The translations under genes and the position numbers were made by a program. Shown here one piece after another: positions 56 through 63,173 of a DNA stretch of 64,000 nt. Position 1 is the first letter of the stretch. The number at the start of each line of letters is the position of its first letter. The stretch is from an uncultured Rhodobacterales bacterium (lineage in GTDB: Bacteria > Pseudomonadota > Alphaproteobacteria > Rhodobacterales > CAZPXZ01), in the NCBI GenBank assembly GCA_964586735.1, contig CAZPIN010000089.1:1200-65199 (forward strand), in the 5' to 3' direction. The notes beneath the pieces are model-generated. The model did not search any database. It was not told the DNA's origin and saw nothing but the letters and a program-made list of their open reading frames with translations.

Positions 56-3000
56 TTGACTCTGGAATCAGCGCCGATAACGTACGCGCAGCAACAAGCC
101 TGGTGGGGAGAAAGCGGCATGAGTGAACACTCGCCGAGCAGTCAGGAAGTACTAGAGCTCGACGCCGTCACGGGAAGCGTAAGGCTTCCGGCGTCTTGGG
201 TGGAGATCGTCCAGACCCGTCGCGAGGGCGACGACCTCGTCGTGCAGCTTGTCGACGGGCGCACTTTGCTTGTGCCCGACTTTTTCTCCATCGCGCAGGC
301 TGTGGCCTTAGTGCGCGAGCCAACAGGTGTCATCCTTGCCTTGGACATCACTCCCCAAGGCGAATCGCAGGGAGTCCGCTCCGTCTCCCTGAGCTGGCTG
401 GAGGAGATGTTTGGCATCGAGCCCGAGGAGCAGGTCGCCGCTGAACTCGATGCAGTCGAAGATTCGGAGGAGGAACCAGCCGAAGAGTCCGCCGAAGATC
501 AGGCGGACGAGGCCGCTGCCGTTGCCGCCATCGAAGAGGAAGCCGAACCGGACCAGGTGGCGGCGCCTGAAACCCAGCCAGACTCCAGCGTTGCGGCCAC
601 ATCTTCAGACGAGGACAACGCGACATCCGACGCGCCCAGAGAGCCCAAAAGCGCTGGCAGCTATGTCGACGAGATCATGGTGGCAAGCGCCGTACTGGGA
701 GTCGCCGCCCTCGTCGGAGGTGACGAGGAATCAACGTCGCCGCTTGCGGTTGACCCCGCGTTGAAGCCAGCGCTGCCGGACAGCGAAGTGGTGGAGCGAG
801 GCATAACGAAGACTGAGCAGGCAAGAGTGTTCAATATCGCGGACTGGGCCATCCCTGACGCGGCCCGGATACCCAGCGAAGCGGATGTGGTCTGGACGCC
901 TGCCAGCGGCAGGGAAGGGACGACCCTGCAGGCCAACTTCGACCTCGACGGAGATGGCGCCGTCGACGCCCAGACGAGGATTCACTTCAACGCAGACTAT
1001 GTTGCGACCGGCGTTGACTTCGACGACAACTACGACGGGTCGACGGACCGAAGCGTGGCGTTCACGGTCAACGAAAGCGGCCAGCATACCCTGGCGCGGT
1101 ACGACGACGATGGCGACGGCTCATATGACAGAGCGGAAGCCTACGGAACGGACAGCGACGGCAACCGGGTGGTCCAACATGATGACGACTACCGCGGCGC
1201 CTTTCTGGCGGACAGAATCGAGACCATAACGCAGGATGCCGACGGCACCACCGTTGCGGAGATTGACGAGAACGGTGACGGCAGCCCAGACCGGATCGAA
1301 AGGCGGTTTCTCGACAGAAGCGAAACGCTCAGCGAAGTTTGGGTGTTCGACCTCTCTGACGGCAACCCTGAGGACATCGACGCGCGCAAGACCTATCACT
1401 ACAACGAAATCGGCTTATTGGAGCGCGTTGACCATGACGAGTACGTAGACGGTACTGTTGACAGGTCGGAGTTCTATTTCGGGGGAGACGGCGAAGCCAA
1501 CCGGAGCGAATCGTATTTCCTTGACAGTCAGGGACGCCTCGTCGCTATCTCGTACGACGACGACAACGACGGCAATCCGGACTGGACGGCCGTCCTGGGC
1601 TATGGAGATGCCGCTGGCGGCTCCGCCATAAGCGGCCGAGCCGTCAACCCCGACCCGCGCGAGCATGCGACCGGGCACAGGGCCACCAGCATCACAATCG
1701 ATGAGGATTACGACAGAATTATCGACCGATCTGAGCAGTACGAGTATGTCAGTACCGGCTACGCAAGGGGCCGCGTTGCCGCCATAACGTACGATAACGA
1801 CCACAGCAACGACGGCACCTTCGAGCTTAGGGAAACATTCGAGTATGATCGGAGCTCCCCGCAGCAGAGTCAGCCCCTGCGCAAGTACGTAGATCAGTTC
1901 GCAGATGGGACCTTCGAGCGAGTCGAGCAGTACCGCTACAGTGAAGGCCTTGCCGACAGGGTAGAGCGAATCGAATACGACGACAGCTATGATGGAACCA
2001 GCTTTCAGTCGGACCGGGCTGAGGACATTGAGTATAATAGCCGGGGGGCGGTGAGTAGAACTCGATACGACGACGACAATGACGGAGACGCTGATCGGAT
2101 CGAGGAATACCGCTATGGCCTGGACGCGCGTGTCTCCGAGGTCCGGTTTGACGGGAATGCCGATGGAATCTGGGACTCTATCGAGCGCCATAGATGGAAC
2201 GGCAATGGCAAGCGGGCCGGACGAGTTTATGACAGCGATGCGGATGGCACCCCGGACCGCGCCGAAGCATATCAGTACAACATTAAGGGCCGATTGGGCG
2301 CGATACAAATTGACGATGACGCGGACGGCACCGTCGATTCCTCTGTCGCCATTGCCTATAACGCGCGGGGGCAAGAATCAGCTAGGCTGCATGATGATGA
2401 CATCGACGGTACGGCCAACAGAATTGACACATACAGCTATAGCGGACAGGGCGTACTGGAGAGACTCACCACCCAGACAGATCACAATGACAACGGGTAT
2501 ACCAATTACGAGCGAATTGATACGTTTCTCTACAATGGCGGAATCCTGACCAGCCACCGCGTTCAATACGATCCAGACGAGGATGGCTCCTATGAACGGG
2601 ATGAAGTGACGCTGTACAGCGCGGAGGGCGTCCGTTATGACCGCACCATCAGGCGCGACACCAACGACGACGGAACCTTCAACAGCGTGGAGCGCACCGA
2701 GTGGAGCCTCAGCGATGACTCTTACCGGATCACCGTGAGCCTATATCCGGACTCAAGTCTGGTAGGTTCGCCAAACCGAATGGAAGTGCGCCAGTACGAC
2801 GAGCAGGGCACTATCGACACTGGCATTGAGTATTTCGACTACTCCAGAGACGGCGACTGGGACGAGGTGATCCGCACAACGTATGCCAATGGGCTGCCGC
2901 ACATACTGGAGATATTCGAGGACTTTGACGGCACGATGGCTGCGGATAGAATCATTGTGTACGAATACGACAGCGAAGGAAGCGTCGCGCGGGCAAAGTA

Positions 3001-6000
3001 CGATGATGACGCGGACGGCCAGGGTACTGGCGACTTTGAGAGAATTGAAACTTACACGGGCCGCAACAGCCGGGGAGACCTGACGAGTGTCAGCTACGAT
3101 GACAACGCCGACGGCGTTATCGACCGCACAGAAGTCCGCGAGTACAACGCCGATAATTTGCACGAGAGAAGCACGTTCCTGATTGACGAGAACAATGATC
3201 TTGTCAATGAGCGCCGAGAGACGCTAACTTACAACCAGCTCGGCCAGATTGTGCGCGCGGAATATGATGGCGCCAATGGACCCGATGGCTCGCCAGATGC
3301 CTTGGGGTGGGTTGACCCAACCGGCGCTTCCTATGGCACCGTTGACGGTACAACGGACTGGAGCGAGGAGACGGTGTGGTTTGGCAGCGCGGTAGGAAGG
3401 AAAACCCTCCATTTCCATGGATTCGTCAGTGGGGCAATTGAAAAGACGGAAGTGCATCATTTCGAGCAGGGGGCAATCGGCCGCATCGACCACTACGGGC
3501 GAACCTTGCTCGACGGCACCGCCGACTCTTTGGGCGAAATCGACCCGGACGGAACAGTCTATGGCACATCTGACGGCACGGCAGATGGCTCTCCCGACTG
3601 GACGGAGGACTTCGACTACGCGCCCATGCCGGGTGTCGCGCTTCGCACAACCTCCCGCTACTACGTGGCCGGAAACTCCAACCCAAAGGCAGAGGTGGTG
3701 CGGGAAGACTATACTGACGGAAGCTTCGTCCAGATAAACCGCTGGGATGACGAAGGCGGCACGGCGGATGGGACCATGGACCGCGCTCAGTCCCGGTATT
3801 TTGCGGCGGACGGCCAATTAGCTTATGTCCTTGACGACAGTAACAATGACGGCACCTGGGAATCCAGGGGACAATTTACCTTCAACGAGCAGAACGTCGC
3901 GACTGAATCATTTGTTACCGAATATGGCAGCGATGGCAGGGCCATAGTCCGAACTATAGCAAGCGTGTTTGAGGTGACTCCAAATTCCAGACAGCTGAGA
4001 GAGGAAACCGTAACGGACTACTCCGATGGTGGCACAAACGCCGACAGAATTGTAACTACGAGATACCTCACTTCAGGCGCCGACAGAGGCAAGCCAGAGC
4101 AGACGCTTGTTGACACCAACGGCGATGGTTTGTGGGAAACTGATACTGTTTCAAGCTATTCAGCCACAGGGCGTACGGATCTAGTTAGCTACCATCTCCA
4201 CCCCACGGACGATTCTATAGTTAACCGCGGTGAGCGCCAAACATTTAATGAAGTGGGCCATTTAACTGGCATTGAGCATGACATGGACTATAACGGCACT
4301 GAGGCCGATTTTTCCGCCGATGCGACAACCGAGCACGCTTATGAAGCCAATGGCAGGCGAACGGTTTCGAGATTTGACCTGAACGCGGATGGTACCGTGG
4401 ACATCGCCTACTCATACAGCTATGACGCAAGCGGCACCCGGGAGTCGGTTGGAATCCATAACGACGGAACCATTAGCGGCAGTGCTGACCGGTCAGAGAC
4501 GATGGTATACAACGACGATAGCGGGCTGCCGAGTCAGGTTGAGTACGACTATGACAATGACAGCACCGTCGACGCGCGGGCGATAAACCGCTATGACGAC
4601 TCTGGTCGCTTGATCGTGATTCGCCACAACGATGGCTCGTCCGAAAGGACCGAAACGCGAACCTTCAACGTAAGGGACCAAATCGCAAGCATTGCACGCG
4701 ATTTTGACGGAAATGGCACGGCTGACGCGCTTGAGGAGAACCGCTATGACAGTTCTGGCCGGCTGAGTCGCATCCTTTATGACGACAACCATAGTGATGA
4801 CGGTGTTTATGAGCGAATTGTGCGCATTGTCTACAGCAATGGCCAGATCGAGCGCATACAGTATGATATGGACGCTGACAGCGCGATCGACTTTGAAGTC
4901 GACGCATTCGGTTACGATTCTCTTGGCAGGAGGGTAAGTGAAACCACCAGCGAAAGCGGCGTTGCTACGCGCACCGATACTATTGAATACGAGGGAAACA
5001 GCCAGCGCCTTGCGAGGCGCACTATCTCCTGGCGCAATGTGGATGGTGACGGCGATGGAACGCCAGGCGTGATCGAAAGGCGGGAGTACGATGCATTCGG
5101 CAGAGTTACGCGCGTTGAATACTACGACAACATCGCTGCAATTGCCTCTAACGACGAGGATCGAATAGTCTCGTACACCTACAACGGCAGCACGAACCTT
5201 GTAGCAACGGCCAATTTCGACATCGACGGAGACGGCACCGTCTCCCGTCACGCAACCTACACGTACGGGACAAACAATCGACTCCAGTCCATTGCCGTTA
5301 ATCTCGACCTTGATGATGATGGCACCACTGATGAATCTGAAACCTACACCTATACCTCGGATCGTACTGTCACCATCGAATATGACGGGACAGACGATCG
5401 GGTTGAATATTTAACCTACGCTGGGGCCAGTATCCAATCTCCCTCACTGCCAGGAACAGATGTCGAAGTACCGCCAAGCGTGGCGGAGCTCGCTTCTTTA
5501 CGGAGTGTACTGGAGGGAGTTGCCAGAATTGCACACGGCCGCATCGAAAGACTGGCGACAAACCATATATCCAACAGCAACGACGTTACAATTGATGAAG
5601 TTGAGACGTATTACTACAACCAGGGCGGTGATTTGATTCGCACTGACATCGATATGGATAACGATGGCACAGTAGACAGGAGACAGCACATTAGTGAAGG
5701 CGATTTTAACTGGCTTGAAGTTGACCATAATGATGATGGAACCTTTGACGAAGTCTATCGAGATGTTGAATTCGATGAAGAGGGTCGCGCTAGCGTCCGC
5801 GAATATTCTGACATCGAATCCGCGCCCGATTTTGAAGTAAACATAACTGAGTTTCGACTGTACGAGAGTGCAAGCGATAGCCTCCCATGGGCCCATGTGC
5901 GCGACTTGGACGGTGATCCAGATTACGACACCATGTATGTGGAATTCTCCGGCGGGACTTTGGAGATTCTCCCGACAACAGGTTCACTGTTCCCGCATCT

Positions 6001-6307
6001 TGAAACGATTGATCTTGGAGGGCTGACCCTCGATGGCAGCAGTCCATCGGTAACTCTGGATATTGACTCGGAAACGGTTCGAAATCTTGCAGGGGGAGCT
6101 GATGGAACCATTGACAACCGATACAACGAAGAATCCCCCTATGTGCTGAGAATCATTTCCAACCGCGCGTCCGGACTCAACCTAGCCAGCAGCGAATTCG
6201 CAAGAGACGACAGCGCTGATTCCGGCGACCTGCAAGCCTATAGGGCTTCCAGCAATGACTTGCTGGTTGTTCTGGTGGACCCGGACATTACCGTTACACT
6301 GGCTTAA
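56..6307 (+). CDS. Giant polyacidic repeat protein, family member A (BapA-prefix-like N-terminal cassette, one hydrophobic helix, YD-like + DxDxDG repeats, conserved C-terminal cassette)
   Basis: Uninterrupted 2083-codon ORF. The track start at 56 is TTG; the ATG at 119, preceded by GGGGAGAAAG, is the more likely start. N-terminal cassette: RREGDDLVVQLVDGRTLLVPDFF...LSWLEEMFG. An E/A-rich linker and one hydrophobic helix follow (IMVASAVLGVAALVGG, ~nt 668-721). The body is dozens of ~45-55-aa units (Y-x-YD-x-x-G-x-L then DxDxDG-x-x-DR). The protein ends LLVVLVDPDITVTLA. Confidence 0.85.
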   Translation: MTLESAPITYAQQQAWWGESGMSEHSPSSQEVLELDAVTGSVRLPASWVEIVQTRREGDDLVVQLVDGRTLLVPDFFSIAQAVALVREPTGVILALDITPQGESQGVRSVSLSWLEEMFGIEPEEQVAAELDAVEDSEEEPAEESAEDQADEAAAVAAIEEEAEPDQVAAPETQPDSSVAATSSDEDNATSDAPREPKSAGSYVDEIMVASAVLGVAALVGGDEESTSPLAVDPALKPALPDSEVVERGITKTEQARVFNIADWAIPDAARIPSEADVVWTPASGREGTTLQANFDLDGDGAVDAQTRIHFNADYVATGVDFDDNYDGSTDRSVAFTVNESGQHTLARYDDDGDGSYDRAEAYGTDSDGNRVVQHDDDYRGAFLADRIETITQDADGTTVAEIDENGDGSPDRIERRFLDRSETLSEVWVFDLSDGNPEDIDARKTYHYNEIGLLERVDHDEYVDGTVDRSEFYFGGDGEANRSESYFLDSQGRLVAISYDDDNDGNPDWTAVLGYGDAAGGSAISGRAVNPDPREHATGHRATSITIDEDYDRIIDRSEQYEYVSTGYARGRVAAITYDNDHSNDGTFELRETFEYDRSSPQQSQPLRKYVDQFADGTFERVEQYRYSEGLADRVERIEYDDSYDGTSFQSDRAEDIEYNSRGAVSRTRYDDDNDGDADRIEEYRYGLDARVSEVRFDGNADGIWDSIERHRWNGNGKRAGRVYDSDADGTPDRAEAYQYNIKGRLGAIQIDDDADGTVDSSVAIAYNARGQESARLHDDDIDGTANRIDTYSYSGQGVLERLTTQTDHNDNGYTNYERIDTFLYNGGILTSHRVQYDPDEDGSYERDEVTLYSAEGVRYDRTIRRDTNDDGTFNSVERTEWSLSDDSYRITVSLYPDSSLVGSPNRMEVRQYDEQGTIDTGIEYFDYSRDGDWDEVIRTTYANGLPHILEIFEDFDGTMAADRIIVYEYDSEGSVARAKYDDDADGQGTGDFERIETYTGRNSRGDLTSVSYDDNADGVIDRTEVREYNADNLHERSTFLIDENNDLVNERRETLTYNQLGQIVRAEYDGANGPDGSPDALGWVDPTGASYGTVDGTTDWSEETVWFGSAVGRKTLHFHGFVSGAIEKTEVHHFEQGAIGRIDHYGRTLLDGTADSLGEIDPDGTVYGTSDGTADGSPDWTEDFDYAPMPGVALRTTSRYYVAGNSNPKAEVVREDYTDGSFVQINRWDDEGGTADGTMDRAQSRYFAADGQLAYVLDDSNNDGTWESRGQFTFNEQNVATESFVTEYGSDGRAIVRTIASVFEVTPNSRQLREETVTDYSDGGTNADRIVTTRYLTSGADRGKPEQTLVDTNGDGLWETDTVSSYSATGRTDLVSYHLHPTDDSIVNRGERQTFNEVGHLTGIEHDMDYNGTEADFSADATTEHAYEANGRRTVSRFDLNADGTVDIAYSYSYDASGTRESVGIHNDGTISGSADRSETMVYNDDSGLPSQVEYDYDNDSTVDARAINRYDDSGRLIVIRHNDGSSERTETRTFNVRDQIASIARDFDGNGTADALEENRYDSSGRLSRILYDDNHSDDGVYERIVRIVYSNGQIERIQYDMDADSAIDFEVDAFGYDSLGRRVSETTSESGVATRTDTIEYEGNSQRLARRTISWRNVDGDGDGTPGVIERREYDAFGRVTRVEYYDNIAAIASNDEDRIVSYTYNGSTNLVATANFDIDGDGTVSRHATYTYGTNNRLQSIAVNLDLDDDGTTDESETYTYTSDRTVTIEYDGTDDRVEYLTYAGASIQSPSLPGTDVEVPPSVAELASLRSVLEGVARIAHGRIERLATNHISNSNDVTIDEVETYYYNQGGDLIRTDIDMDNDGTVDRRQHISEGDFNWLEVDHNDDGTFDEVYRDVEFDEEGRASVREYSDIESAPDFEVNITEFRLYESASDSLPWAHVRDLDGDPDYDTMYVEFSGGTLEILPTTGSLFPHLETIDLGGLTLDGSSPSVTLDIDSETVRNLAGGADGTIDNRYNEESPYVLRIISNRASGLNLASSEFARDDSADSGDLQAYRASSNDLLVVLVDPDITVTLA

Positions 6308-50401: not shown

Positions 50402-53400
50402 ATGACCTTCGCCCAACTCGACGCGAGAGCGTCCATCACCCTTTCCGACAACATGGAAGCTGTACTTTTGCCAGTGCAGCCGAACCAGATTGAGCGCACC
50501 TACAGGGATGGCGACCATCTGGTGGTAGCGCTGGTCGACGGCAGGGAACTGCTGCTGGAGGGGTGGTTTAGCAGGCTGGAGGAAGGAAGCGAGGTCGCGC
50601 TGCTGGCGCGTGACGGAAGTACCGGCGAAATCGTAGCGGTAACCATCACCGAGACCGGTGAGTATGCCAGGACGCAGCCCGTCGCCCTGGGCCGTCTGGA
50701 GGAAATGTTTGACGCCGATGCCAACGCCATCGAGGAGGCGCTGCAGAAGGTCGGGGTGTCCGCGCAAGCCAGAACCGCGGCTGAGGTATTCACCCCTGAA
50801 CTCACCGCGGCGGCGATTGTAGGGGGCGTGGTCCTGGTAGCGGCCGTGGCGTTTATCGAAGAGTCCGAGGGGGAGCCCGAGCAAGCCGGGGCCGACAGGC
50901 CCGCAGTCACCGTTACTGCCGTTGACGATGATGGAGACGGAACCCCGGACGACAGCAACAACGACGGCACTCCGGATTTTGTAGACATCGACCCAGGCTC
51001 GGACGGCACCACGGACTTCAGGGTGGAGACAGCAGCCGAGCGGGTGGAAGTTTTTGGGACAAGCTACGAGCTGGATGGTAGCGGGGTGCAGCAGATAAGG
51101 TCAATCGCGCAGCCGGTGGCAGGCATCGAGACCATTCAAGAGGTCGATCTGGGCACGGACGGCAGGCCAGTTGCTATGAGCGTCCACAGCTCGGCGCTGG
51201 ACGAACTGGCGGGTACCGCCAGCGATGCCTACAGCCTGACCGTCGTGGGGGGCAGCGACGACCAGATAGCGTTTCTGGATGGCATCGTGTTCCAGGTGGA
51301 TTCCGGTACGACCGGCTTCAATGTCTACCAGGACCATCGCGGAGCGCGGTACGTCGTCGATGAGGATATCGACGTTGCGGGTGCTGGCTTCTACGAGTCC
51401 CCTCTTGCCGCGATCGTCGGCAAAGTGGAAGATGGCATAGTGGAAGACATCAATCTGGTCATGGTCGGAGCAACCGACGTTGGCGATGCTATCTCGGACA
51501 ATAACCTTGAGCATTTTCACACGCTGCTGGAAGCCATTCGGGACGCATCGGCCAGCGCAGCGGGAGCGGCGGTGAGCAGAAGCATCGCCGTGCCCGCGAA
51601 TGTACCGGCGCTGGACGACCTGACAGAAGGTGATCTGGTGAAGCTGGCCGGGTACGTCAACGACTACGTGCAGGGCAGCGACGACAGCGGCGACATCAGC
51701 ATGACCGCGTCCATCACCGGGCGCACGCTGACCATGACCGTCGAGGACGGGGATGGAACCGACGACAAGGATGTGGAGATCGTGTTCGCCACTGCGGGCG
51801 CGGGGCAAACAAGCCTGGACGCGGCGGTGATCACCCAAAAACGGGACACGGACGGCGATGGCAGCGTAGACCGCGTCAGCATCGACGGGACCACCGGCGA
51901 GGCTGCTGACGGCACTGCAGACCAGCACGAGGATTTCGAGTACGACTCCGATGGTAGCGTAACATCGAAAAGGCTGGATACGGATGCGGACGGCACACCC
52001 GATGGCAGTGAAACCTTCGCGTATACGAACGGGGCCACCCGAGCGGAGCGAGACTCCGACAACGACGGCACTCCTGATCGAATCTCGCATGATGCTGACA
52101 GCGACGGCAATGCCGAGCTCATCGAGCATGACGACGATGACAATGGCACCATCGACCGCACCGAGCATGATGCTGACAGTGACGGCACGCCGGAGCGGAT
52201 CGTACACAACGCCGATGCGGCTGGCGTCAACGTGCGCACCGAGGATGACGCCAACGACAATGGCACCATCGAACGCACCCGGCACGACGCCAATGGCGAT
52301 GGTACGCCGGAACGGATCGAATACGACCAGGATGAAAACGGCACCATAGACTTGACGACGTCCGATTCCGATGGAGACGGATATGCCGATCTGTGGGAAT
52401 GGGACACGGATGAGGATGGCACCGCTGACTTTAGAGGCTACGACACGGACAACAACGGCACCGTGAACTACTACGAGAATAGATTTGATCGGGGCGGCGC
52501 GCAGCTCCGATTCGACTACGACCGGGACGAAAACGGCACCATCGACCTGACTGCATTCGACTCAGATGGAGACAGGCGAGCGGAACTGCTGCATTTCGAC
52601 ACGGACGAGGACGGGACGCCGGAAGCCACGGGATACGACACGGACGATGACGGCAGAGTGAACTACTACGAGATCGACTCCAATCAAGATGGTACTCTGG
52701 ACGGCTACATCCTGGACGAGGACGACAACGGCTCACCGGACTTCTCGCAGGTTGACAGCGACCAGAATGGAGTGTTCGAGTCTGCCACACGTTCCCCCGA
52801 CGCCACGGGGAGCAGGGTTATCCGAGTCGACAATCTGCTGGTCACTCAGCCCTCCGAAGTAATCAGCTATGACCGGCTTGGAAGAATTTCCGCCATTAGC
52901 GTCGACTCGGACCAGAATGGCACCGCCGAAGAGCACCAGACCTATATCTACAACTCCTTTGACCCTCTGGGAAGGGTGGTGGAGGATGCGGCCGATTCAG
53001 CGTTGGATGAAGGGGGAATAGACGGCTCCCTCGACGACATTCACTACTATTTCCATGGTGCCTATATCCCAACTTCTGCAGACGGGCAGGTGCGCGTTGT
53101 GACGGCGGCTAACCCGCAGAGCGAGGGGGGGCTTCCCACGGGCATTGCGATCGACTTTAACGGCGACGGCACAGTGGATGCAGAGGGAGCGCCAGCTGTA
53201 AACGTTGAATCAGTTAGCGAGGACGTCAACGGAACCACTACGGATCTGCTCAATCAGCCGTCAATACAGACCGTGTTCTTCGAGCCGGACGACACGGTAC
53301 GGGACCCGGAAAACCCGTACTGGGTTGAACACTTGGTACACGGCTATACCGGCAACCTCCTTCATGCAACGGTCATTGCGGGCGACTCCATCTATATGCA

Positions 53401-54244
53401 TGGCAGTTTCGCCGCGATCAATATGGCGTACACGTATGGGACCATCGACAGCCAGCCGGACAGCGATCTGCACGTGTCCCGAATCCAGTACGACGTAACC
53501 CATGGTATAGGGGAGGACGCGACAGTGGACCGCGAGTGGGGCGAGGCGTACTCCTATACGCTGACGACAGGTCCCGATGAAGTCACCCAGATCATCGACA
53601 CGATCAGGAAGGATGTCTTCTCAACGGACCATGACGGCACGGCGGATCCCGACCGGACCGAGCTGTATCATTACGACGAGAACGGCATGATCGAAAGCGT
53701 CGAGATTGACAGCGTCGGCACCGACGGAACCGGTACTGCCGACGGCACGTATGACAGCACCGAGACGTATTTCTACGGCCCCGGCGCTTTCTATGACAGC
53801 TATCGCGATACCGGAAAGATGTTCGTCTACAAGACCGTGGACGATGACCGCGACGGGACGGCGGACAGCCTGGATTTTGCCAACGGCGTCACCTACAGCT
53901 TTGCGCCTGGCGCGGATGAGTTGGACGCTCTGGTTGGCATTGCCAGTATCAACCTGTCCGGCACCGCTGACGACCCCGCCTATCCAGCCATTCTGATCGA
54001 CGGCGTGACCACGTTGACCATAACCGACGAGGTGCTGTCAGCGCTTGCGGACCGCGATGGCGACGGCACCGCTGACACCGGCTACACCCTTACCATCGAC
54101 AGCGACGGAACGAACGATGTCGTACGGATCGGAGCCGGCATTGAAATGGTGGCAGGTAGCGACGATGGCGAGGGCCGCGTTTACCATCAGGGAACCGACG
54201 GAGTCATCTACATCGACCCGGATATCACCGTGGAAGCGGTATAG
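50402..54244 (+). CDS. Polyacidic family member F
   Basis: 1280 aa. N cassette: IERTYRDGDHLVVALVDGRELLLEGWF...ALGRLEEMF. Helix: AAIVGGVVLVAAVAFI. An internal C-cassette-like copy lies at ~51135-51385. A 13-residue-period DxDxDG array spans ~51843-52785. Ends GVIYIDPDITVEAV. Confidence 0.85.
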   Translation: MTFAQLDARASITLSDNMEAVLLPVQPNQIERTYRDGDHLVVALVDGRELLLEGWFSRLEEGSEVALLARDGSTGEIVAVTITETGEYARTQPVALGRLEEMFDADANAIEEALQKVGVSAQARTAAEVFTPELTAAAIVGGVVLVAAVAFIEESEGEPEQAGADRPAVTVTAVDDDGDGTPDDSNNDGTPDFVDIDPGSDGTTDFRVETAAERVEVFGTSYELDGSGVQQIRSIAQPVAGIETIQEVDLGTDGRPVAMSVHSSALDELAGTASDAYSLTVVGGSDDQIAFLDGIVFQVDSGTTGFNVYQDHRGARYVVDEDIDVAGAGFYESPLAAIVGKVEDGIVEDINLVMVGATDVGDAISDNNLEHFHTLLEAIRDASASAAGAAVSRSIAVPANVPALDDLTEGDLVKLAGYVNDYVQGSDDSGDISMTASITGRTLTMTVEDGDGTDDKDVEIVFATAGAGQTSLDAAVITQKRDTDGDGSVDRVSIDGTTGEAADGTADQHEDFEYDSDGSVTSKRLDTDADGTPDGSETFAYTNGATRAERDSDNDGTPDRISHDADSDGNAELIEHDDDDNGTIDRTEHDADSDGTPERIVHNADAAGVNVRTEDDANDNGTIERTRHDANGDGTPERIEYDQDENGTIDLTTSDSDGDGYADLWEWDTDEDGTADFRGYDTDNNGTVNYYENRFDRGGAQLRFDYDRDENGTIDLTAFDSDGDRRAELLHFDTDEDGTPEATGYDTDDDGRVNYYEIDSNQDGTLDGYILDEDDNGSPDFSQVDSDQNGVFESATRSPDATGSRVIRVDNLLVTQPSEVISYDRLGRISAISVDSDQNGTAEEHQTYIYNSFDPLGRVVEDAADSALDEGGIDGSLDDIHYYFHGAYIPTSADGQVRVVTAANPQSEGGLPTGIAIDFNGDGTVDAEGAPAVNVESVSEDVNGTTTDLLNQPSIQTVFFEPDDTVRDPENPYWVEHLVHGYTGNLLHATVIAGDSIYMHGSFAAINMAYTYGTIDSQPDSDLHVSRIQYDVTHGIGEDATVDREWGEAYSYTLTTGPDEVTQIIDTIRKDVFSTDHDGTADPDRTELYHYDENGMIESVEIDSVGTDGTGTADGTYDSTETYFYGPGAFYDSYRDTGKMFVYKTVDDDRDGTADSLDFANGVTYSFAPGADELDALVGIASINLSGTADDPAYPAILIDGVTTLTITDEVLSALADRDGDGTADTGYTLTIDSDGTNDVVRIGAGIEMVAGSDDGEGRVYHQGTDGVIYIDPDITVEAV
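51843..52785 (+). repeat. Coding array of DxDxDG loops with ~13-residue spacing in member F
   Basis: Example: DSDNDGTPDRISHDADSDGNAELIEHDDDDNGTIDRTEHDADSDGTPERIVHNADAAGVNVRTEDDANDNGTIERTRHDANGDGTPERIEYDQDENGTIDL... About 20 or more loops can be read off the translation. Confidence 0.8.
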
Positions 54245-55556: not shown

Positions 55557-58500
55557 ATGTCCTTGTCACAACTCGACTCCCAGCTCGACATGAGAGTGCC
55601 CACCGCCCTTCCCGACGGCTTGGATGCCGTGCTTCTGCCAGTGCATCTCGACCAGGTCGGGCGAACCTACAGGGACGGCAACCACTTGGTGGTAGTGCTG
55701 GCCGATGGTAGGGAACTGCTTCTAGAAGGGTGGTTTGTCAGGCTGGAAGAAGGGAACGGGGTCGCGCTGCTGGTACGGGACGGAAATACCGGCGAAATCG
55801 TTGCGCTCACCATCTCCGAGACCGGCAAGTATGCGGGCGCGCAGCCCGTCGCGCTGGGTCGCCTGGAGGAGATGTTTGGCGCCGACGCTGACGCCATCGA
55901 GGAGGCCGTGCAGAAGGCCGGGGTCCATGCGCTTGTGGCAACCACCCCTGAACTCACCCAGGCGATAATAGTCGGAGGCGTAGTCTTGACCGCGTCCGTG
56001 GCCTTTATCACACAGTCCGAGCGTGAGACCGGTACGGGAGTGACTGTCACTACCGTTGACGATGACGAAGATGGCACCTTCGAGCAAATCATGTATGACA
56101 ACGACAGCGACGGCACCATAGACCGTACCGAGTACGACGACAACGATGACGGCTCCATCGACCGCACCGAGCACGACTCAGACGACAACGGTACGGCCGA
56201 TCGCACAGAGTACGATGCCAACAACAACGGCAATCCAGAAAGAATCGTGTACAACGCAGACGGGGCTGGCGTCAACGTACGAAGAGCGTTTGACACCGAC
56301 GACAACGGCTCCGTCGATCGCACTGAACACGACGCCGACGGCGATGGCACACCGGATCGAATTGTGCACAACGCAGACGCGGCGGGCATCAACGTACGCA
56401 CTGAGCATGACGCCGATGAAGACGGCACCTTCGAACGCACCGAGTACGACGCCGATGGCGACGGTGCGCCGGAGCGGATCGCGCATGACGCCGACGAGGA
56501 CGGTACTGCCGAACGCACCGAGTATGATACGAACGACAACGGTTCCATCGACCGTACCGAGCATGACGACAACGGCGACGGCACGCCGGAGCGGACTGTG
56601 CACAACGCAGACGCGGCTGGAGTCAACGTGCGAACTGAGCACGACACCAACAGCGACGGGACGCCAAACCGCACCGAGTACGACGCCGATGGCGACGGCA
56701 CCCCAGAGCGCACCGTTTACGACGACGATGACGATGGCATAGCCAACAGCACCGAGTACGACGACAATGACGACGGCACCGTCGAGCGCACCGAATACGA
56801 CGACGACGCAGACGGCACCCCAGACCGCACCGAGGATGGTCCCAGAAGTGTCGTTCTCAGAGGCCCGGAGCTCAGCACTGAGCAGGCCGAGGCGGCGCTG
56901 CTGGAAGCCGCCGGCACAAGCGTTGACGGGACGCAGGAGGCAGCGATTCGGGCGCTGGCTCGGGCGATAACGCCCCGCGGTCTCGACAGCGTGCATGCCG
57001 CCGAAATTGGCACCACGGGCGGATATGTGGAGTTCGACATCGACGGCGACGGTACCGCCGACCAGCGCTCCGAACTCGAGTGGGCGCAGGATTCGTACGT
57101 TCTGCGCACGGAGAGAGTGGACCTCGACTACGACGGAACGTTCGAAGCGGACCTCGTCAGGGAATGGTCGTCTTTCGACAGCGAGGGACGCCCAGCGGTG
57201 GAGACAGTCGACGAAAACGCCGACGGCAGCGCGAACCGCCATATGCAGCATGTCTATGACGATCAGGGACGCGTGGTAGAGACGAGGATATCGACCTATC
57301 AGGCTGCAGGCTTCGACGGAGCGGCGGTGGACCCCGAGTCCTTTGTCAGCGCAATGTTTCAGGTCGAGATTGACACCAACGGCGACGGTACGGCCGAGAC
57401 CTTCCAGGTGACGAATCCCAGAGGGAGCATCGCCGTGGCAGATGGCGTAATTGTGGTCAACCTGCAGGCGCGCGTTCCCAAATCAGATCCCCAAGGCAGC
57501 GCGTTCACGGAAAACCGGGGGCCGGACTATTCAGCCGTTGACACGGACGATCTGGAAAGCGTCGTGCTGGTGGACACCAACGACGATAGTACGCCGGACA
57601 GGGTCTATCCAGTCATACAGGCCATAGAGATCGATGGCACCAGCCACGCCCTGTATTATGACTTTAGGCGTGACAACGGGCTGGTCGGCGTACACAGGCA
57701 TCAGGAGCAAACCCTGCACATTGACACTGACGGAGATGACACTCCGGACAAAGTCTACACTGCCAGGAATGGCAGGATCGTGGTTGAAAATGTCTACACG
57801 GACAATGACGGTACGATTGTAACGGAAGAAGTGGAGTACACGCCGTTTAACGCCATAGACTATGACGGCACCGTGGTCAGGGTTTCCGAGTATTCCGGCG
57901 ACCTCGCCGTGGAGGGTGCGGTACTGACCTTTGTTGACGGAACCATGACCGCTGCGGCCATTGACGGCGCGGCAACGCAGGTTGCCAGCGGCACCATTGA
58001 AAGCATAGCCGTTGACGCCACTGCCGAGGAAATCGTGAAGTATGCATACGGGACCGCGGGCGGAAGCCAGGAAGCGGCCGACAGCGAGGACATGGCGGAG
58101 CATCTCATATCGACCAGCTACGACTACGACGCGGACGGTACCGCCGAGCGGGTCGACAGGTACGAGCGCAACGACCGGGGCCACATCATCAAGGTCGGGT
58201 ACGACTTAAACGGCGACGGCACGGCCGAGCGCAGCGAATCCTATCTCCTGCGGGATGACTGGATGCGGGGTACGGAAAACAATGTCGCCCGGGAATTCGT
58301 GAGCGCGCGGCGGGGCGATATCGACGCCCTGGACATTATTGATCAGTCCGAGCACCGGGAAGTTGCCGCGGCGCTGCAGCGCAACCTATTTTCGGGTGCG
58401 CAGATCGCCGCCATACAGTACGACGACAACGATGACGGGACAACGGATCGAGTCGAGCGCGTAAGCTATGACGACGCCGGCCGTCCAGCTGCAGTCCAGG

Positions 58501-61500
58501 TGGATCTCGGCTTTAACGGCACCGTGGACCGCACCGAAGCCTACGGCTACAACGACAAGAATCAGATTGTCAGCGCCCGGTTTCACGAGGGCGACAATAC
58601 GGACGATGCGCATTATCTCGAGCAGATCTACGCATATGACGAATATGGCCGCATGTACCGGATCGAGAGCCATACCAATGGCGACGGCACGGCGGAGGAA
58701 GTCCGCAGTTTCGAATTTGACGACCAGGGCCGTATCAGCGCGTACAGGCTGCAGTCCGGCCTTGAGATTCAGTCAGAGACTGACGGAGCTGGATTCACGC
58801 GGGTTGCCGTTTATGGCGTAGACCACACGGAGGAGTTCGAGCGCAACGAGCTTGGCCAGATCGTCAGATCCCAGACCCGCGTGGAGGACGCGGACCCCGA
58901 TGGATACAGGCCGTTCATCGAGTATGAGTGGGACGGTCAGGGACGGTTGGTAACGGAGCGCCACGACATATTTGATCTGTCACAGCTTGATATCCCGCTC
59001 CTCCCAGGCCTTCCTCCCCCACCGCCATCGCCGCAGGCTTTCGAGCTGGGTTTTGAATACGAATACAACGCCGCAGGGCAGGTCGCCAGACGCGTCGAAC
59101 TTGTGAGCGTGGACGGCACGCTTGAAGAAAAGGCGGCGACCAGATTCGAGTATGACGATCTTGGCAGGCTTTACCTGAAGACTGTCGAGGGGGAAGCCGA
59201 ATTCGGCAACGGCAGGCCGACCACCACCAGCTTCTATGCCAGCGGGAGCTACTTTGCCTTTCGGAAGTCGCTGGCCAGCGAAGTCGCGTACCTTGAGGAC
59301 TATCTGGGAGCCGACGTTGGAGGCGACCGTCTGTCGGACACCGCGGGAACCGACGGCAGCGCGGGCGCCGACGGTACGGCGGACGACTTGTGGGGAGTTG
59401 GCGACCGGTTCGCCGACGCGAACAGCGACGGGAGGCCAGACGACGTCTGGCACGACCGCGACGGCGACGGAACGGCAGACGATTTCTGGAGAGACAACGG
59501 CTACCTGCATAGTGATGGCTGGGTGGAATTCAGCGACAGATTCGCGGACGGCACGCCGGACGATTTCTGGTCCGATGTCAACGGCGACGGCAATTATGAC
59601 GATTTCCTGCCAAATCTTGTAACGTTCAATCCTGGCGACAGAATTGCGTACAACCACCGCGGGGTAACCATCATTCATCCCGGTGACGCGATTGTTGATA
59701 TTGGAGGTACCACTGATACGGGCATGATTGGATCTGACGACAGGCACGTCATCGACGAAAGCAATGTGATTGCGGTTGCCTCCGGCTTCGTGAGGGTCAC
59801 CGATTCCGATGGCATCCGTACGATTTACGGCGGCGGCACATCGTTTACCGTCGGCGAGGGCGACTGGCTCGCCATATCCAATGGCGCCAGATTTACCGTC
59901 GACGGCGGCAGCGACATAACCGTTTGGCAGGCGAGCTCGATGGTCATCAGGGCCGATGGCACAATTTCCGTCAATCCCGACGGAACCAATGACATCAGGC
60001 CAGACGGCGTTCCAGATGAAAATCCGGACGGCACTCCCGACATGTTCCCTGACGGCACGCCGGACATCAACCCCGACGGCACGCCGGATGACTTTCTTGG
60101 AGCATATGACCTGGACGGCAACGCGATCGGCGACGGCATTCCGGACCTGGTCCCCGGCGTATCCGATGGTACGGCAGATCCGGTTTCCGACGGAACGGTG
60201 GACGATTTCTTTGACGCTGACGGCACTCCGGGAGCGGACGGCACTCCCGATGACGCGGCTCCCGACGGAACCCCCGACCGCGGCTCCGACGGAACGCCAG
60301 AGAGGCTGGTGTTCAGCCATGCTGGGGACCTCACGGTCGACTCGGATTTTTTCGATCCGGCGCGGATCGCCGGCATCAGGGAGATCCATCTGGCGGGAGA
60401 ACGCCTGACGCACTCCATAGGCACAAGATTCGAGATCGCCGACGGGTTTCTGATCGACCTTGCGGAAGCCGGCTCCGCCGACGGTCCGGTGGAAATCGCC
60501 ATCCATGGCCACCGCGCATACTTTGACGCGGACGACGCCATCGCGTTCGAGGGAGATGGATTCCGGCGGGTCCGCTACGACCATGGCGGAAACAGCCTCT
60601 ATGTCGATTCGGACGGCAACAGGCTTCTCGTTGAGCGGGAAGACGTCGCAGTTTCGACGACGTTCACCAGAATGGTTCCGGAGCTTGTCGCGGCGGCCAC
60701 CAGCGGCGCGCTTACGGCGGCGCTTCTCAGAAGCGCAGGGATTGACGTCGCTGCCGAAACGGCCGTCAACAACGCCGAAAAGGTCATTGCCGCTTACGGC
60801 ACGGCCGTGGCAGACATCGATGACCCGGATGCGCGGAGCCTGCTTGAGCTCATCATGACGGACTCGCTGCCCGAGTATGTGAGGCCGTACGCCGCCCTTA
60901 CCGGCGCAAGATACGACGCTTCAGGAGAATTTCTGACGCTGTACATCAACGACGGCGGAGACGCCTCGGGGACGGCTGACCGGACCGCCAGGATCACCTA
61001 CGATGCCGACAGGGGCGGTCTTGCGGTATCGGCTGGATTCTTCCTTGGCGACGACGAGGATGGCGTTCAGCTCTATGGGGACTGGGTGGAAACCTATGCC
61101 TACAACCCCGACAGGAGCATGGTTACTACGATAGAGGCAGGCGGCGAGACTATTGGCCATCTGACATACAGCCTAGACGCTTTCGGCAACACCCTTAGCG
61201 ACGGCACTCCGGACGGTCTGGCGTTGCATGGCGACCTTGTGCTGGACGCGCACTTCGCGCAGATTCTCTCCGGCAACGGCATCAGCGTTATCGATATGGA
61301 CCGGCATATCCCCGAGCGCCCGTTCCAGGCTGCGGAAACTGGGGGGGTCTACACGGACGACGAGGGGACGGAGCAAACCTACGAGGGGCGCCCCGAGGTT
61401 TCCGCCCGGGACGAAGTTGAAGGAACCGCCGCGCATCTTCATCTCTCCGTCGAGTCGCTGGCCGTGCTGGCGGACGAAGACGGTGACGGTACGCCCGACC

Positions 61501-63173
61501 CCGACTACACGCTCGCCATTCATGGCGACCAGTCCGACACGCTGACTCTTTCGGGAGACTTTGTCAGGGCATGGGAGCTTGACAGCCTTCTGCCGTCGTT
61601 TGACGGCTTGAACGAGCGTTTCCACGCCTATCGAAGCGCGTCCGGCGTTGTTCTGGTGGATCCCAGCGTGTCAACCCGGATGGAAAGCCTTCTGGCCACC
61701 ATTTTTTCAAATGAGATAACGCTTCCTCCAGTCGGAGGGGGCGACGCCGTAACCCGCATTGACACCCCCGTTACCGACACCAATGGCGACGGTACGCCCG
61801 ACGCAGGAGACGGCACGGTCGACCGCTTCGAGTATGGCAGCGTAGCAGTGCAGATTGATGACGTAGTTGGCAGCAATCCGGTTCAGTTCAGAGCATACAC
61901 GGACGCCAACAATGATGGCGTATACGATATCTTTGGCCTCGACGGCACGCTCGATACGGACACCAACGGCGACGGCACGCTCAACGCCGATGTCTTTGGC
62001 TCCCGCGACGGCACGCTCGATACGGATACCAACGCCGACGGCACGCTCAACGGCGATCTCTTTTTCGGCGGCGACGGCACGCTTGATTCCGACACCAACG
62101 GCGACGGTACAAACAACGCCGATATCTTTGACCATCGCCCAGACGGTACGCTTGATACGGATACCAATGGCGACGGTGCGCTTGACGCCGACGTCTATGG
62201 CGGCGAAAGCGACGGCACGCTCGATACGGACACCAACGGCGACGGCACGCTCAACGCCGATGTCTTTGGCAGTGCCGATGTCTTTGGCAGTAGCGACGGC
62301 ACTTCGCGCGATGGCAACGATGGCATGCGGGACATAGATACCAACGGTGACGGCAGGCGCGACGTCGATCTCTTCATCGGCAAAATCGGCGACGGTACGC
62401 TCGATACGGATCTCAACCACGACGGTACGCTCGACTTCGACAATCAGGGTATCCCGGTACTCACGGATTGGATGTCTTCCAGATATCACTTTCAAGATGA
62501 GACGCCTGGTTCCGACGGCATAATTGACCGCGTGGAGCTGCGGCCTGCCCGCGTGGTACAACTGACCGACACCGACGGCGACGGCACCTTCGACCGCGTG
62601 ACCGAGGAAAGGGACACTGACCGGGACGGTACCTTCGACCGCATCGAGCACGCCGTTTACGACCAGGCGACGTTTGACGGCAACCTTGACGGTACGCTTG
62701 AAAGCGAATTCAGGGTCGTTTACCGGGAATACGACGACGACGCCAATGACGACCTTGACCGGGTGGTGTTCGAAAGCGGCCTTACCTATTCCCTGGACCT
62801 GACAGTGGCCAAGGCCGCTGACTGGGCGGGAGTCAATCGCATCACGCTGTCCCGCGGAGACACGGGCGAGACAACCCTCACGCTACCGCCGGACGCGTAT
62901 GTCGCAACCAGAGGGGATGTCCTCTCCGCTACCAGCGCTATGGCCTCAGAAAGGCGGCTGTGGATTGACGGCGATGAAAACGACACTGTCCAGATAGAGT
63001 TGGGGAGCGGCACGAACGAGTTCACGGCCGTAGACAACGACAATGACGGCACAGTGGATAACGTCAACGGCTATCACCGTTACTCCGCCACAATTGCCAA
63101 CAGCGGCGGAATGCAAATAGCCTATGACCTCAGGATTGACGCGGACATCACCGTCGTGGACATAACGCCCTAG
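55557..63173 (+). CDS. Polyacidic family member G (largest copy)
   Basis: 2538 aa. N cassette: VGRTYRDGNHLVVVLADGRELLLEGWF...ALGRLEEMFG. Helix: AIIVGGVVLTASVAFI. Several distinct repeat arrays are present, and two internal C-cassette-like copies lie at ~60373-60655 and ~61428-61683. Ends AYDLRIDADITVVDITP. Confidence 0.85.
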   Translation: MSLSQLDSQLDMRVPTALPDGLDAVLLPVHLDQVGRTYRDGNHLVVVLADGRELLLEGWFVRLEEGNGVALLVRDGNTGEIVALTISETGKYAGAQPVALGRLEEMFGADADAIEEAVQKAGVHALVATTPELTQAIIVGGVVLTASVAFITQSERETGTGVTVTTVDDDEDGTFEQIMYDNDSDGTIDRTEYDDNDDGSIDRTEHDSDDNGTADRTEYDANNNGNPERIVYNADGAGVNVRRAFDTDDNGSVDRTEHDADGDGTPDRIVHNADAAGINVRTEHDADEDGTFERTEYDADGDGAPERIAHDADEDGTAERTEYDTNDNGSIDRTEHDDNGDGTPERTVHNADAAGVNVRTEHDTNSDGTPNRTEYDADGDGTPERTVYDDDDDGIANSTEYDDNDDGTVERTEYDDDADGTPDRTEDGPRSVVLRGPELSTEQAEAALLEAAGTSVDGTQEAAIRALARAITPRGLDSVHAAEIGTTGGYVEFDIDGDGTADQRSELEWAQDSYVLRTERVDLDYDGTFEADLVREWSSFDSEGRPAVETVDENADGSANRHMQHVYDDQGRVVETRISTYQAAGFDGAAVDPESFVSAMFQVEIDTNGDGTAETFQVTNPRGSIAVADGVIVVNLQARVPKSDPQGSAFTENRGPDYSAVDTDDLESVVLVDTNDDSTPDRVYPVIQAIEIDGTSHALYYDFRRDNGLVGVHRHQEQTLHIDTDGDDTPDKVYTARNGRIVVENVYTDNDGTIVTEEVEYTPFNAIDYDGTVVRVSEYSGDLAVEGAVLTFVDGTMTAAAIDGAATQVASGTIESIAVDATAEEIVKYAYGTAGGSQEAADSEDMAEHLISTSYDYDADGTAERVDRYERNDRGHIIKVGYDLNGDGTAERSESYLLRDDWMRGTENNVAREFVSARRGDIDALDIIDQSEHREVAAALQRNLFSGAQIAAIQYDDNDDGTTDRVERVSYDDAGRPAAVQVDLGFNGTVDRTEAYGYNDKNQIVSARFHEGDNTDDAHYLEQIYAYDEYGRMYRIESHTNGDGTAEEVRSFEFDDQGRISAYRLQSGLEIQSETDGAGFTRVAVYGVDHTEEFERNELGQIVRSQTRVEDADPDGYRPFIEYEWDGQGRLVTERHDIFDLSQLDIPLLPGLPPPPPSPQAFELGFEYEYNAAGQVARRVELVSVDGTLEEKAATRFEYDDLGRLYLKTVEGEAEFGNGRPTTTSFYASGSYFAFRKSLASEVAYLEDYLGADVGGDRLSDTAGTDGSAGADGTADDLWGVGDRFADANSDGRPDDVWHDRDGDGTADDFWRDNGYLHSDGWVEFSDRFADGTPDDFWSDVNGDGNYDDFLPNLVTFNPGDRIAYNHRGVTIIHPGDAIVDIGGTTDTGMIGSDDRHVIDESNVIAVASGFVRVTDSDGIRTIYGGGTSFTVGEGDWLAISNGARFTVDGGSDITVWQASSMVIRADGTISVNPDGTNDIRPDGVPDENPDGTPDMFPDGTPDINPDGTPDDFLGAYDLDGNAIGDGIPDLVPGVSDGTADPVSDGTVDDFFDADGTPGADGTPDDAAPDGTPDRGSDGTPERLVFSHAGDLTVDSDFFDPARIAGIREIHLAGERLTHSIGTRFEIADGFLIDLAEAGSADGPVEIAIHGHRAYFDADDAIAFEGDGFRRVRYDHGGNSLYVDSDGNRLLVEREDVAVSTTFTRMVPELVAAATSGALTAALLRSAGIDVAAETAVNNAEKVIAAYGTAVADIDDPDARSLLELIMTDSLPEYVRPYAALTGARYDASGEFLTLYINDGGDASGTADRTARITYDADRGGLAVSAGFFLGDDEDGVQLYGDWVETYAYNPDRSMVTTIEAGGETIGHLTYSLDAFGNTLSDGTPDGLALHGDLVLDAHFAQILSGNGISVIDMDRHIPERPFQAAETGGVYTDDEGTEQTYEGRPEVSARDEVEGTAAHLHLSVESLAVLADEDGDGTPDPDYTLAIHGDQSDTLTLSGDFVRAWELDSLLPSFDGLNERFHAYRSASGVVLVDPSVSTRMESLLATIFSNEITLPPVGGGDAVTRIDTPVTDTNGDGTPDAGDGTVDRFEYGSVAVQIDDVVGSNPVQFRAYTDANNDGVYDIFGLDGTLDTDTNGDGTLNADVFGSRDGTLDTDTNADGTLNGDLFFGGDGTLDSDTNGDGTNNADIFDHRPDGTLDTDTNGDGALDADVYGGESDGTLDTDTNGDGTLNADVFGSADVFGSSDGTSRDGNDGMRDIDTNGDGRRDVDLFIGKIGDGTLDTDLNHDGTLDFDNQGIPVLTDWMSSRYHFQDETPGSDGIIDRVELRPARVVQLTDTDGDGTFDRVTEERDTDRDGTFDRIEHAVYDQATFDGNLDGTLESEFRVVYREYDDDANDDLDRVVFESGLTYSLDLTVAKAADWAGVNRITLSRGDTGETTLTLPPDAYVATRGDVLSATSAMASERRLWIDGDENDTVQIELGSGTNEFTAVDNDNDGTVDNVNGYHRYSATIANSGGMQIAYDLRIDADITVVDITP
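56050..56840 (+). repeat. Coding array of DxDxDG loops with 13-residue period in member G
   Basis: The unit [TE(Y/H)D(A/D)(D/N)(G/D)DGT(P/I)(E/D)R] is iterated ~20 times. It is interspersed with the variant ERIVHNADAAGVNVRTEHD, which is also present in F. Confidence 0.85.
59973..60305 (+). repeat. Pro/Asp 'PDGTPD' micro-repeat array in member G
   Basis: NPDGTNDIRPDGVPDENPDGTPDMFPDGTPDINPDGTPDDF...VSDGTADPVSDGTVDDFFDADGTPGADGTPDDAAPDGTPDRGSDGTPE, with units of 6-9 residues. Confidence 0.8.
61941..62294 (+). repeat. Five tandem 66-69-nt coding repeats plus a perfect 18-nt micro-duplication in member G
   Basis: Units start at 61941, 62007, 62073, 62142 and 62211 (DGTLDTDTNGDGTLNADVFGS...). The first 60 nt of units 1 and 5 are identical. 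GCCGATGTCTTTGGCAGT occurs twice in tandem (62256-62273 and 62274-62291). Confidence 0.9.

Follow-up and report, generated by a model that had tools for sequence, protein, structure and literature searches.

The stretch of uncultured Rhodobacterales DNA analysed here, 64,000 nucleotides of contig CAZPIN010000089.1 (hereafter the window), encodes at least six paralogous acidic proteins of 456 to 2538 residues, and two of these, designated F and G, carry long arrays of a 13-residue repeat built around the DxDxDG motif. The larger protein, G, is the product of an open reading frame (ORF) at 55557..63173 on the forward strand; it comprises 2538 residues, harbors a 20-unit array and contains 21% Asp and Glu, for a net charge of -373, together with 49 DxDxDG motifs and no RTX motifs. 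Its paralog F (50402..54244, forward strand; 1280 residues, 22% of them Asp or Glu) has 24 DxDxDG motifs, and is on record as an NCBI protein that is the sole member of its own cluster. Neither protein contains a cysteine anywhere along its length, and the RTX pattern GG.G.D returned no match anywhere in F or G. Hairpins of the YxYDxxGR type are also present in both proteins outside the arrays.

The array of G spans positions 56049..56828 on the forward strand (residues 165-424) and consists of 20 units of exactly 13 residues each, in a single register and with no insertions or deletions, as anticipated by an earlier note on this DNA that had placed about 20 back-to-back 13-mers at 56050-56840. 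In F, 19 in-register 13-residue units occupy 52043..52783 (forward strand; residues 548-794) and are abutted by a lead-in of irregular and 27-mer-like units (51833..52042, forward strand) in which a DxDxDG loop is combined with a YD-type hairpin. The earlier note had correctly assigned F the same type of array, but its limits of 51843-52785 began about 200 nucleotides too early because some five irregular or 27-mer-like units had been included. The self-identity of the G array is 0.45 at a lag of 13 residues, 0.47 at 26 and 0.52 at 39, against a lag-13 identity of 0.11 ± 0.019 (maximum 0.19) in 1000 residue shuffles, and Tandem Repeats Finder reported DNA periods of 39, 117 and 234 nucleotides at 56242-56834. 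Nucleotide identity between units averages 62%, and different codons are used at 48% of the positions at which units share an amino acid, indicating that the period has been kept by selection at the peptide level and not by recent slippage; the units are old. Non-coding tandem DNA was rejected as an explanation, given the long intact ORFs, the conservation of the peptide while codons diverge and the existence of homologs. Antisense or off-frame ORFs also span the arrays (55667-56713, 56178-57251 and 51101-52285, all on the reverse strand); encoding up to 394 residues of periodic, Ser/Val/Arg-rich sequence, they could be mis-called as genes, and were rejected as by-products of the GAC/GGC-rich repeat.

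Column frequencies over the 20 units of G (T15/I4, E12/V4, Y10/H8, D17/N3, A9/D6, D14/N6 and a variable residue at columns 1-7; D13/N4, G20, T11, P7/I3/A3, E8/D7 and R18 at columns 8-13) define the consensus [TI]-[EV]-[YH]-D-x-[DN]-x-[DN]-G-[TS]-x-[ED]-R, in which the Gly is invariant and the Arg is present in 18 of the 20 units, and agree with the unit consensus previously given for G. Counted from its first Asp, the unit reads D1-x-[DN]3-x-[DN]5-G6-[TS]7-x8-[DE]9-R10-[TI]11-[EV]12-[YH]13, and is thus made up of a nine-residue DxDxDG-x-x-[DE] loop and a four-residue strand (R-[TI]-[EV]-[YH]). The four residues between loops, R-T-E-Y and, in the second half of F, R/L-W-E-W, F-R-G-Y or L-L-H-F, alternate polar with beta-branched or aromatic residues in the manner of a beta-strand, and Trp, Phe, Tyr and Leu are more frequent at the strand positions of that half of the F array. 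The earlier statement that the repeat has almost no hydrophobic core residues overlooked the conserved Thr or Ile at unit position 1 and the Tyr, His, Phe or Trp at unit position 3 (counted from the Thr). Both arrays are one third acidic, with net charges of -67 over the 260 residues of the G array and -62 for that of F.

In EF-hands, in the beta-hairpins of integrins and in thrombospondin type 3 (TSP3) repeats, loops of the DxDxDG-x-x-[DE] type each coordinate a single Ca2+. The loop core (Asp or Asn at positions 1, 3 and 5, Gly at 6, and at 9 an acidic or otherwise polar residue) is intact in 17 of the 20 units of G and 16 of the 19 units of F, and the best matches among PDB sequences are loops of the same kind: lanmodulin for the G array (E 0.014) and, for a four-unit (4x13) profile, isolated EF loops from calmodulin and lanmodulin and nothing else (E about 7e-5 to 1e-4). 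The identification of these loops as EF-hand-type in the earlier note was therefore upheld. A loop with Glu at position 12 constitutes a complete EF-hand-type 12-residue loop, and strict matches to the PROSITE PS00018 EF-hand expression are limited to two units in G and one in F. On the sequence, the conserved set of putative ligands is 1, 3, 5, (7) and 9, with position 12 optional, since the census finds Glu or Asp at this last position in only 11 of 20 units in G and 6 of 19 in F. The variant unit IVHNADAAGVNVR, previously described as shared by the two proteins, occurs once in F, and G contains three close relatives of it (IVYNADGAGVNVR, IVHNADAAGINVR and TVHNADAAGVNVR) instead. These N-A-D-A-A-G variants, three in G and one in F, have residues other than Asp at loop positions 1 and 5, and probably bind no metal.

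To our search thresholds the array belongs to no named family. Scans against Pfam and NCBIfam at E<=10 returned no repeat family for G, F, the further paralog A or the isolated array, which argues against routine membership in a described family, the outcome that the earlier note had named as damaging to its proposal. Pfam EF-hand models had no match in G, F or the isolated G array at the same threshold, TSP_3 had none in F, G, A or the isolated array, and RHS_repeat (PF05593) had none in G, F, A or the isolated arrays. The four-unit profile found no PDB chain with a contiguous 13-mer array, and the array is described nowhere in the open-access literature searched, which covered DxDxDG repeats, calcium-associated YD repeats and type 1 secretion adhesins with EF-hands. 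Three assignments were rejected: canonical EF-hand protein, on the lack of helices; TSP3, on the lack of cysteines; and RTX, on the absence of the motif.

To gauge how widespread the design is, we ran an exhaustive search with the four-unit profile against 1.84 billion representative proteins. At E<=1e-3 this matched 1888 protein clusters, a number that fell to 272 at E<=1e-10 and to 29 at E<=1e-30. Among the 150 highest-scoring matches, which were inspected, pure 13-mer arrays make up only a part; the others are TSP3-like, contain Cys or mix periods, and five classes can be distinguished. The first comprises members of the F/G family with the same N- and C-termini (P0037, P0039, P0049, P0055 and P0064, with P0043 being F itself), and the second cadherin-like or FG-GAP adhesin-like giants with mixed periods of 13, 27 and 29 residues (P0038, P0040-42, P0056, P0059). 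Cys-containing 13-mers of the form CEPDCDNDGTPDD make up the third class (P0044, P0048, P0080 and others), and bacterial TSP3-like arrays with 11+15/17 spacing the fourth. The fifth consists of small or unrelated proteins with pure, Cys-free 13-mers, among them P0050 (19 units), P0060, in which a 15-unit array adjoins a matrixin-type peptidase domain, P0066, P0070, P0117, P0126 and P0158. Most of the small 13-mer-array proteins scanned had no Pfam match; P0158 and P0123 scored above the Pfam EF-hand_5 cutoff, at loop positions only. The recurrence of the repeat in unrelated architectures, with 272 clusters at E<=1e-10, suggests that the 13-mer design, judged by sequence likeness, is not rare, yet unnamed, and the earlier description of it as uncommon was overstated. 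Narrower searches were empty: homolog searches with the N-terminal domain of G alone and, separately, with the four-unit profile returned zero matches, and a four-sequence N-terminal alignment located no related locus among GTDB species representatives. Look-ups of the exact F and G sequences turned up no contig that encodes them.

The company that the 13-mer keeps in this search bears on one alternative, namely that the array forms a TSP3-like calcium "wire" without disulfides, in which the chain wraps round a row of Ca2+ and has little beta structure, if any. TSP3 has the same DxDxDGxxDxx[DE] pattern and the same spacing of 13 residues, and the unit profile retrieves both the Cys-containing CEPDCDNDGTPDD 13-mers and the bacterial TSP3-like arrays. 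F and G, however, have no cysteines and no Pfam TSP_3 match, AlphaFold predicts a strand in each unit in both of the runs described below, and hhalign and Foldseek point to YD hairpins instead; we regard the wire as rather improbable.

The link to YD hairpins emerged from several comparisons. A phmmer-type search with residues 1-460 of G identified 36 proteins, most of them lipoprotein-like, about 550 residues long and built on a strict 27-residue period (DxDxDGTxDxxxxYxYDxxGNxxRxEx). Many of these proteins carry precomputed RHS_repeat annotations, and two of them, P0001 and P0002, score above the Pfam RHS_repeat cutoff. When a profile of four 13-mers was aligned with a profile of two 27-mers, hhalign reported a probability of 97.2% (E 3e-11) with one single-residue gap per 27-mer, and alternate 13-mer loops aligned onto the YDxxGN turn. 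Paralog A (56..6307, forward strand; 2083 residues) bears repeats of about 27-29 residues in which a DxDxDG loop alternates with a YD-type turn, and P0009 and its relatives mix the 13-mer and 27-mer forms. Together with the lead-in units of F, the hhalign match, the repeats of A and the mixtures in P0009 give the 13-mer the appearance of a YD-type hairpin repeat that has contracted, with DxDxDG loops now at both turns and strands shortened from 6-7 to 4 residues.

Structure prediction was performed on both arrays. Single-sequence AlphaFold2 on residues 150-448 of G yielded a mean predicted local distance difference test (pLDDT) score of 44 and a predicted template modelling (pTM) score of 0.23, with one strand per unit. 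A second model, of residues 478-830 of F, was based on a 22-row multiple sequence alignment (MSA) that also included G, A and the repeat regions of the phmmer-type matches; it reached a mean pLDDT of 64 and a pTM of 0.48, with 10-residue blocks at pLDDT 75-90 across about eight units within the F array, and placed strands of 4-6 residues at 13-residue spacing. DSSP assigned no helices to the array in either model. The Ca2+-dependent rod proposed in the earlier note is compatible with the predicted strand in each unit.

Foldseek searches of PDB with the MSA model listed Rhs cores first (8qjc, 1.3e-7), followed by teneurin YD shells and Tc BC components, with E values between 1e-7 and 1e-4 for these top matches, whereas the best TM-scores (0.30-0.34) were to engineered OspA single-layer beta sheets. 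Foldseek, which the earlier note had suggested as a check, thus returned the connection to RHS/YD beta-hairpin repeats that the note had missed. The low TM-scores indicate that the likeness is one of local hairpin geometry in an elongated, not a closed, shape. These matches and the RHS_repeat annotation of relatives raise the prospect that the array contributes to a toxin-encapsulating shell of the Rhs type, which we consider hardly credible: the DPxG[LW] Rhs cleavage motif is absent from all paralogs, F, G and A have no Pfam RHS_repeat match, four-residue strands are too short for a shell wall, and TM-scores to the YD shells are 0.2 or below.

The models bear equally on the proposition that the array never folds, and is instead a permanently disordered polyanion serving as a high-capacity, low-affinity buffer of Ca2+ or other cations, or as a nucleator or inhibitor of mineral. 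A composition with one third acidic and 9.6% strongly hydrophobic residues, the low pLDDT of the single-sequence model and the strongly acidic character of the whole protein family would all suit such a polymer. Disorder would not be expected, though, to maintain 20 units without an indel, an invariant Gly at loop position 6 or strand positions at which aromatic and beta-branched residues alternate; codons that diverge while the peptide is conserved suggest that a precise geometry is under selection, and the MSA model attains pLDDT 75-90 over several units and resembles structured YD hairpins. We therefore judge permanent disorder unlikely, and found no specific support for the idea of a buffer or nucleator, which the earlier note had also raised.

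Outside the 13-mer arrays, G contains a second array at 61936-62277 (forward strand) with a 22-residue period and about five copies (DGTLDTDTNGDGTLNADVFGSR), again with DxDxDG loops and with a spacer that differs from that of the 13-mer, as well as a short eight-residue Pro/Asp repeat, PDGTPDxx (NPDGTPDMFPDGTPDINPDGTPDD), at 60027-60088 (forward strand), within a longer Asp/Gly/Pro-rich stretch. The 1.3-kb gap between F and G (54245-55556) holds only overlapping, implausible ORFs. Within it, at 55407-55434, lies a strong sigma-70-like site (TTGACA, 16 nucleotides, TATGAT; 11 of 12 matches) about 120 nucleotides upstream of the start of G, and a search for a terminator-like site 3' of F found none.

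The remaining paralogs in the window are B (29237-30607), C (30745-33930) and D (34341-36500), all on the reverse strand. The six proteins A, B, C, D, F and G differ in their middles, which contain no repeats, 27-29-mers or 13-mers, and share, by alignment, an N-terminal domain of about 105 residues that ends in the motif ALGRLEEMF. In G, this domain includes a BapA prefix-like match at 55629..55805 (forward strand; residues 25-83) that is below the Pfam cutoff of 27 bits (PF22783, E 1.4e-4, 22 bits) and to which NF033677 also aligned, and the conserved core extends by alignment to ALGRLEEMF at about residues 98-107. The corresponding match in F (50456..50653, forward strand; residues 19-84) falls just under the same cutoff, at E 6.2e-6 and 26.4 bits. 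In all, A, B, D, F and G gave prefix-like matches of this kind; C had no Pfam match and is grouped with these five by alignment only.

Some 25-90 residues past the N-terminal domain, the same five paralogs have a conserved Gly/Ala/Val-rich hydrophobic segment: LTQAIIVGGVVLTASVAFI in G (55953..56009, forward strand; residues 133-151), LTAAAIVGGVVLVAAVAFI in F (50801..50857, forward strand; residues 134-152), and segments of about 19 residues at 30140-30196 in B, 35973-36029 in D and 665-721 in A. The segment is also found in the homologs P0011, P0037, P0039, P0055 and P0064; in paralog C, the highest-scoring stretch for hydropathy is weaker and precedes the ALGRLDEMF motif. In sequence the segment resembles a transmembrane helix, a feature that would be unexpected in an adhesin exported by a type 1 system and that raises a signal-anchor topology as an alternative. 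At the other end, the six paralogs share a C-terminal module ending in ...VDPDITV..., which is only suggestive as a secretion signal, and no Sec-type signal peptide was seen in the paralogs when judged by eye rather than by a predictor. F and G are probably secreted, and their route may be BapA/LapA-like.

The neighbors of these genes in the window include pstSCAB-phoU-phoB, GcrA, an ABC-2 permease, a restriction-modification gene and glycosyltransferases, and the ArgD protein of the source organism is at most 64-67% identical to those of metagenome-assembled genomes of Hyphomicrobiales and other groups; this alphaproteobacterium has no near kin among the GTDB representatives. The gene order of the 29-39 kb portion of the window is conserved in a related organism (SRA assemblies SRR26493823 and SRR26493825): GcrA, the ABC-2 permease, a 1044-residue homolog of C and a 439-residue homolog of B (P0011) follow one another there, and an additional BapA_N-like protein lies upstream. 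The GcrA homolog of the window (37643-39043, forward strand) is unusually long at 466 residues, with the 155 positions of the Pfam GcrA model split over residues 5-459 by an insert of about 300 residues that is repetitive and Ala/Lys/Pro-rich and has tandem repeats at 38087-38173. The restriction-modification gene (41092-43233, reverse strand) is a fusion of an Eco57I-type methylase and a BsuBI/PstI endonuclease helix-turn-helix domain. The GC content of its region, 0.53-0.57, is lower than that of its flanks (0.60-0.71), and the region may be an acquired island.

From these observations we propose that the array is a calcium-folded beta-hairpin ribbon that serves as a stalk in BapA/LapA-like surface proteins, a reading to which we give roughly an even chance of being correct, and of which all four elements, that is, Ca2+ binding, ribbon structure, secretion route and stalk function, are what we infer. 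Under this model, the 13-mer would have arisen by contraction of the widespread 27-residue RHS/YD-type hairpin repeat, and each intact loop would bind one Ca2+, which amounts to some 17 sites for the array of G and 16 for that of F. Consecutive units would pair as an antiparallel beta-meander to form a narrow, single-layer ribbon, with each hairpin turn, on either edge of the ribbon, constituting a metal site. At the low Ca2+ of the cytosol, charge repulsion (-67 over the 260 residues of the G array) would keep the array unfolded, and extracellular Ca2+ would then induce folding into a rigid spacer about 10 nm long, a length that follows from 20 strands at approximately 0.48 nm each. Such a spacer would act as a calcium-rigidified stalk, holding the remainder of the protein away from the cell, and the array may in addition help to draw the emerging chain out of the cell, a part played by RTX repeats in substrates of type 1 secretion.

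A different function for the same ribbon is that the array itself is adhesive or ligand-binding, bridged through Ca2+ to anionic polysaccharides, mineral surfaces or neighboring cells, for example. Rows of bound cations would line both edges of the ribbon, the presence of six paralogs with varied repeats in one 64-kb region suggests surface diversification, and related arrays adjoin cadherin-like and FG-GAP adhesin domains. The placement of the array in G, at residues 165-424 of 2538 and next to the N-terminal anchor-like module, corresponds instead to the stalk end of RTX adhesins, in which the stalk lies at the anchor end and the ligand-binding domains are distal (see PMC7493085). An adhesive array is accordingly quite improbable in our estimate.

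Several observations weigh against the proposal of a calcium-folded stalk. Glu is absent from loop position 12 in about half of the units and Asp ligands are absent in three units of G, and a content of 9.6% strongly hydrophobic residues in the G array is unusual for a stable fold. Profile likeness among low-complexity Asp/Gly repeats can be inflated. The single-sequence model of G is of poor confidence (pLDDT 44), the mean confidence of the MSA model is only moderate, both models are ion-free, and Foldseek TM-scores are low overall (0.1-0.33, and 0.2 or below to YD shells). With regard to export, the PF22783 and NF033677 matches of A, B, D, F, G, P0037, P0039 and P0049, at 19-27 bits, are all under the respective cutoffs (27 and 35), no NCBIfam model matched the C-terminal 120 residues of the six paralogs, and the 64-kb window contains no type 1 secretion genes.

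Viewed against the earlier note, the observation of the arrays has been confirmed and its interpretation partly supported, with the claims of density, rarity and a lacking hydrophobic core among the exceptions. A wider claim, which we hold to be possible though on balance doubtful, is that the array represents a previously undescribed calcium-folded architecture, a single-layer antiparallel ribbon with a DxDxDG site at every turn, that is derived from YD contraction and replaces RTX in giant secreted proteins free of RTX repeats and cysteines. The array is built from known principles, and introduces no new one. If the proposal is right, it would constitute a third calcium-switched repeat design after the RTX beta-roll and the TSP3 wire, and the 13-mer would be a very small, disulfide-free and strictly modular switch that could serve protein engineering as a calcium- or lanthanide-responsive scaffold. 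Matches to the 13-mer profile, only some of them pure arrays, are found in adhesin-like giants, metalloproteases and small proteins, with no family model and no solved structure, and such a model would allow many acidic repeat proteins now labelled "hypothetical" to be annotated. The source genome would encode at least six paralogous acidic surface proteins in which a BapA-like N-terminus is combined with a hydrophobic segment, which is not the standard picture of an RTX adhesin.

Comparison with known calcium-binding and hairpin systems helps to place the array. With the EF-hands of calmodulin and lanmodulin it shares the D1-x-D3-x-D5-G6-x-x-[DE]9-x-x-E12 pattern and an aromatic residue just before it. 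Unlike them, it has Glu12 in only about half of the units and no flanking helices, because a single residue separates successive loops. TSP3 repeats are disulfide-stabilised and are not known to contain regular beta strands. The 13-residue N-type motif of TSP3 and the bacterial TSP3-like arrays resemble the array in their long tandem runs of Asp-rich DxDxDGxxDxx[DE] 13-mers, in being retrieved by the 13-mer profile and in a calcium-dependent structure, which for the array is a prediction, whereas the arrays of F and G contain no Cys and have a predicted strand in each unit. The RTX beta-roll has about one Ca2+ site per 9 residues and the TSP3 wire about one per 10, so that the array, with a site every 13 residues, does not exceed either in density and the earlier characterization of it as unusually dense went too far. 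With RTX it would share the logic of an acidic repeat that cannot fold at the Ca2+ levels of the cytosol and becomes folded and stiff once outside, and the N-termini of F and G resemble, at scores below the model cutoffs, the BapA/LapA-type prefix, whereas F and G lack the GGxGxDxUx motif and are predicted to form an antiparallel hairpin ribbon instead of a parallel beta-roll.

In its predicted architecture, the array is closest to beta-hairpin sheets. The RHS/YD repeats (PF05593), as present in Rhs proteins, teneurins, Tc BC components and the DxDxDG-bearing 27-mers P0001-P0032, have the same beta-hairpin meander, but their period is 20-27 residues instead of 13, and the array differs from them further in its strands of about four residues, in the presence of DxDxDG at every turn rather than at alternate turns and in that F and G have neither a Pfam RHS_repeat match nor a shell or an Rhs cleavage motif. 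OspA and its engineered extensions likewise consist of a solvent-exposed, single-layer antiparallel meander without a hydrophobic core, but have no metal sites and longer strands. Judged by its sequence, the array would thus operate as a switch in the manner of RTX and TSP3, with loops like those of EF-hands and an architecture like that of a YD hairpin sheet, while lacking defining features of each of these families.

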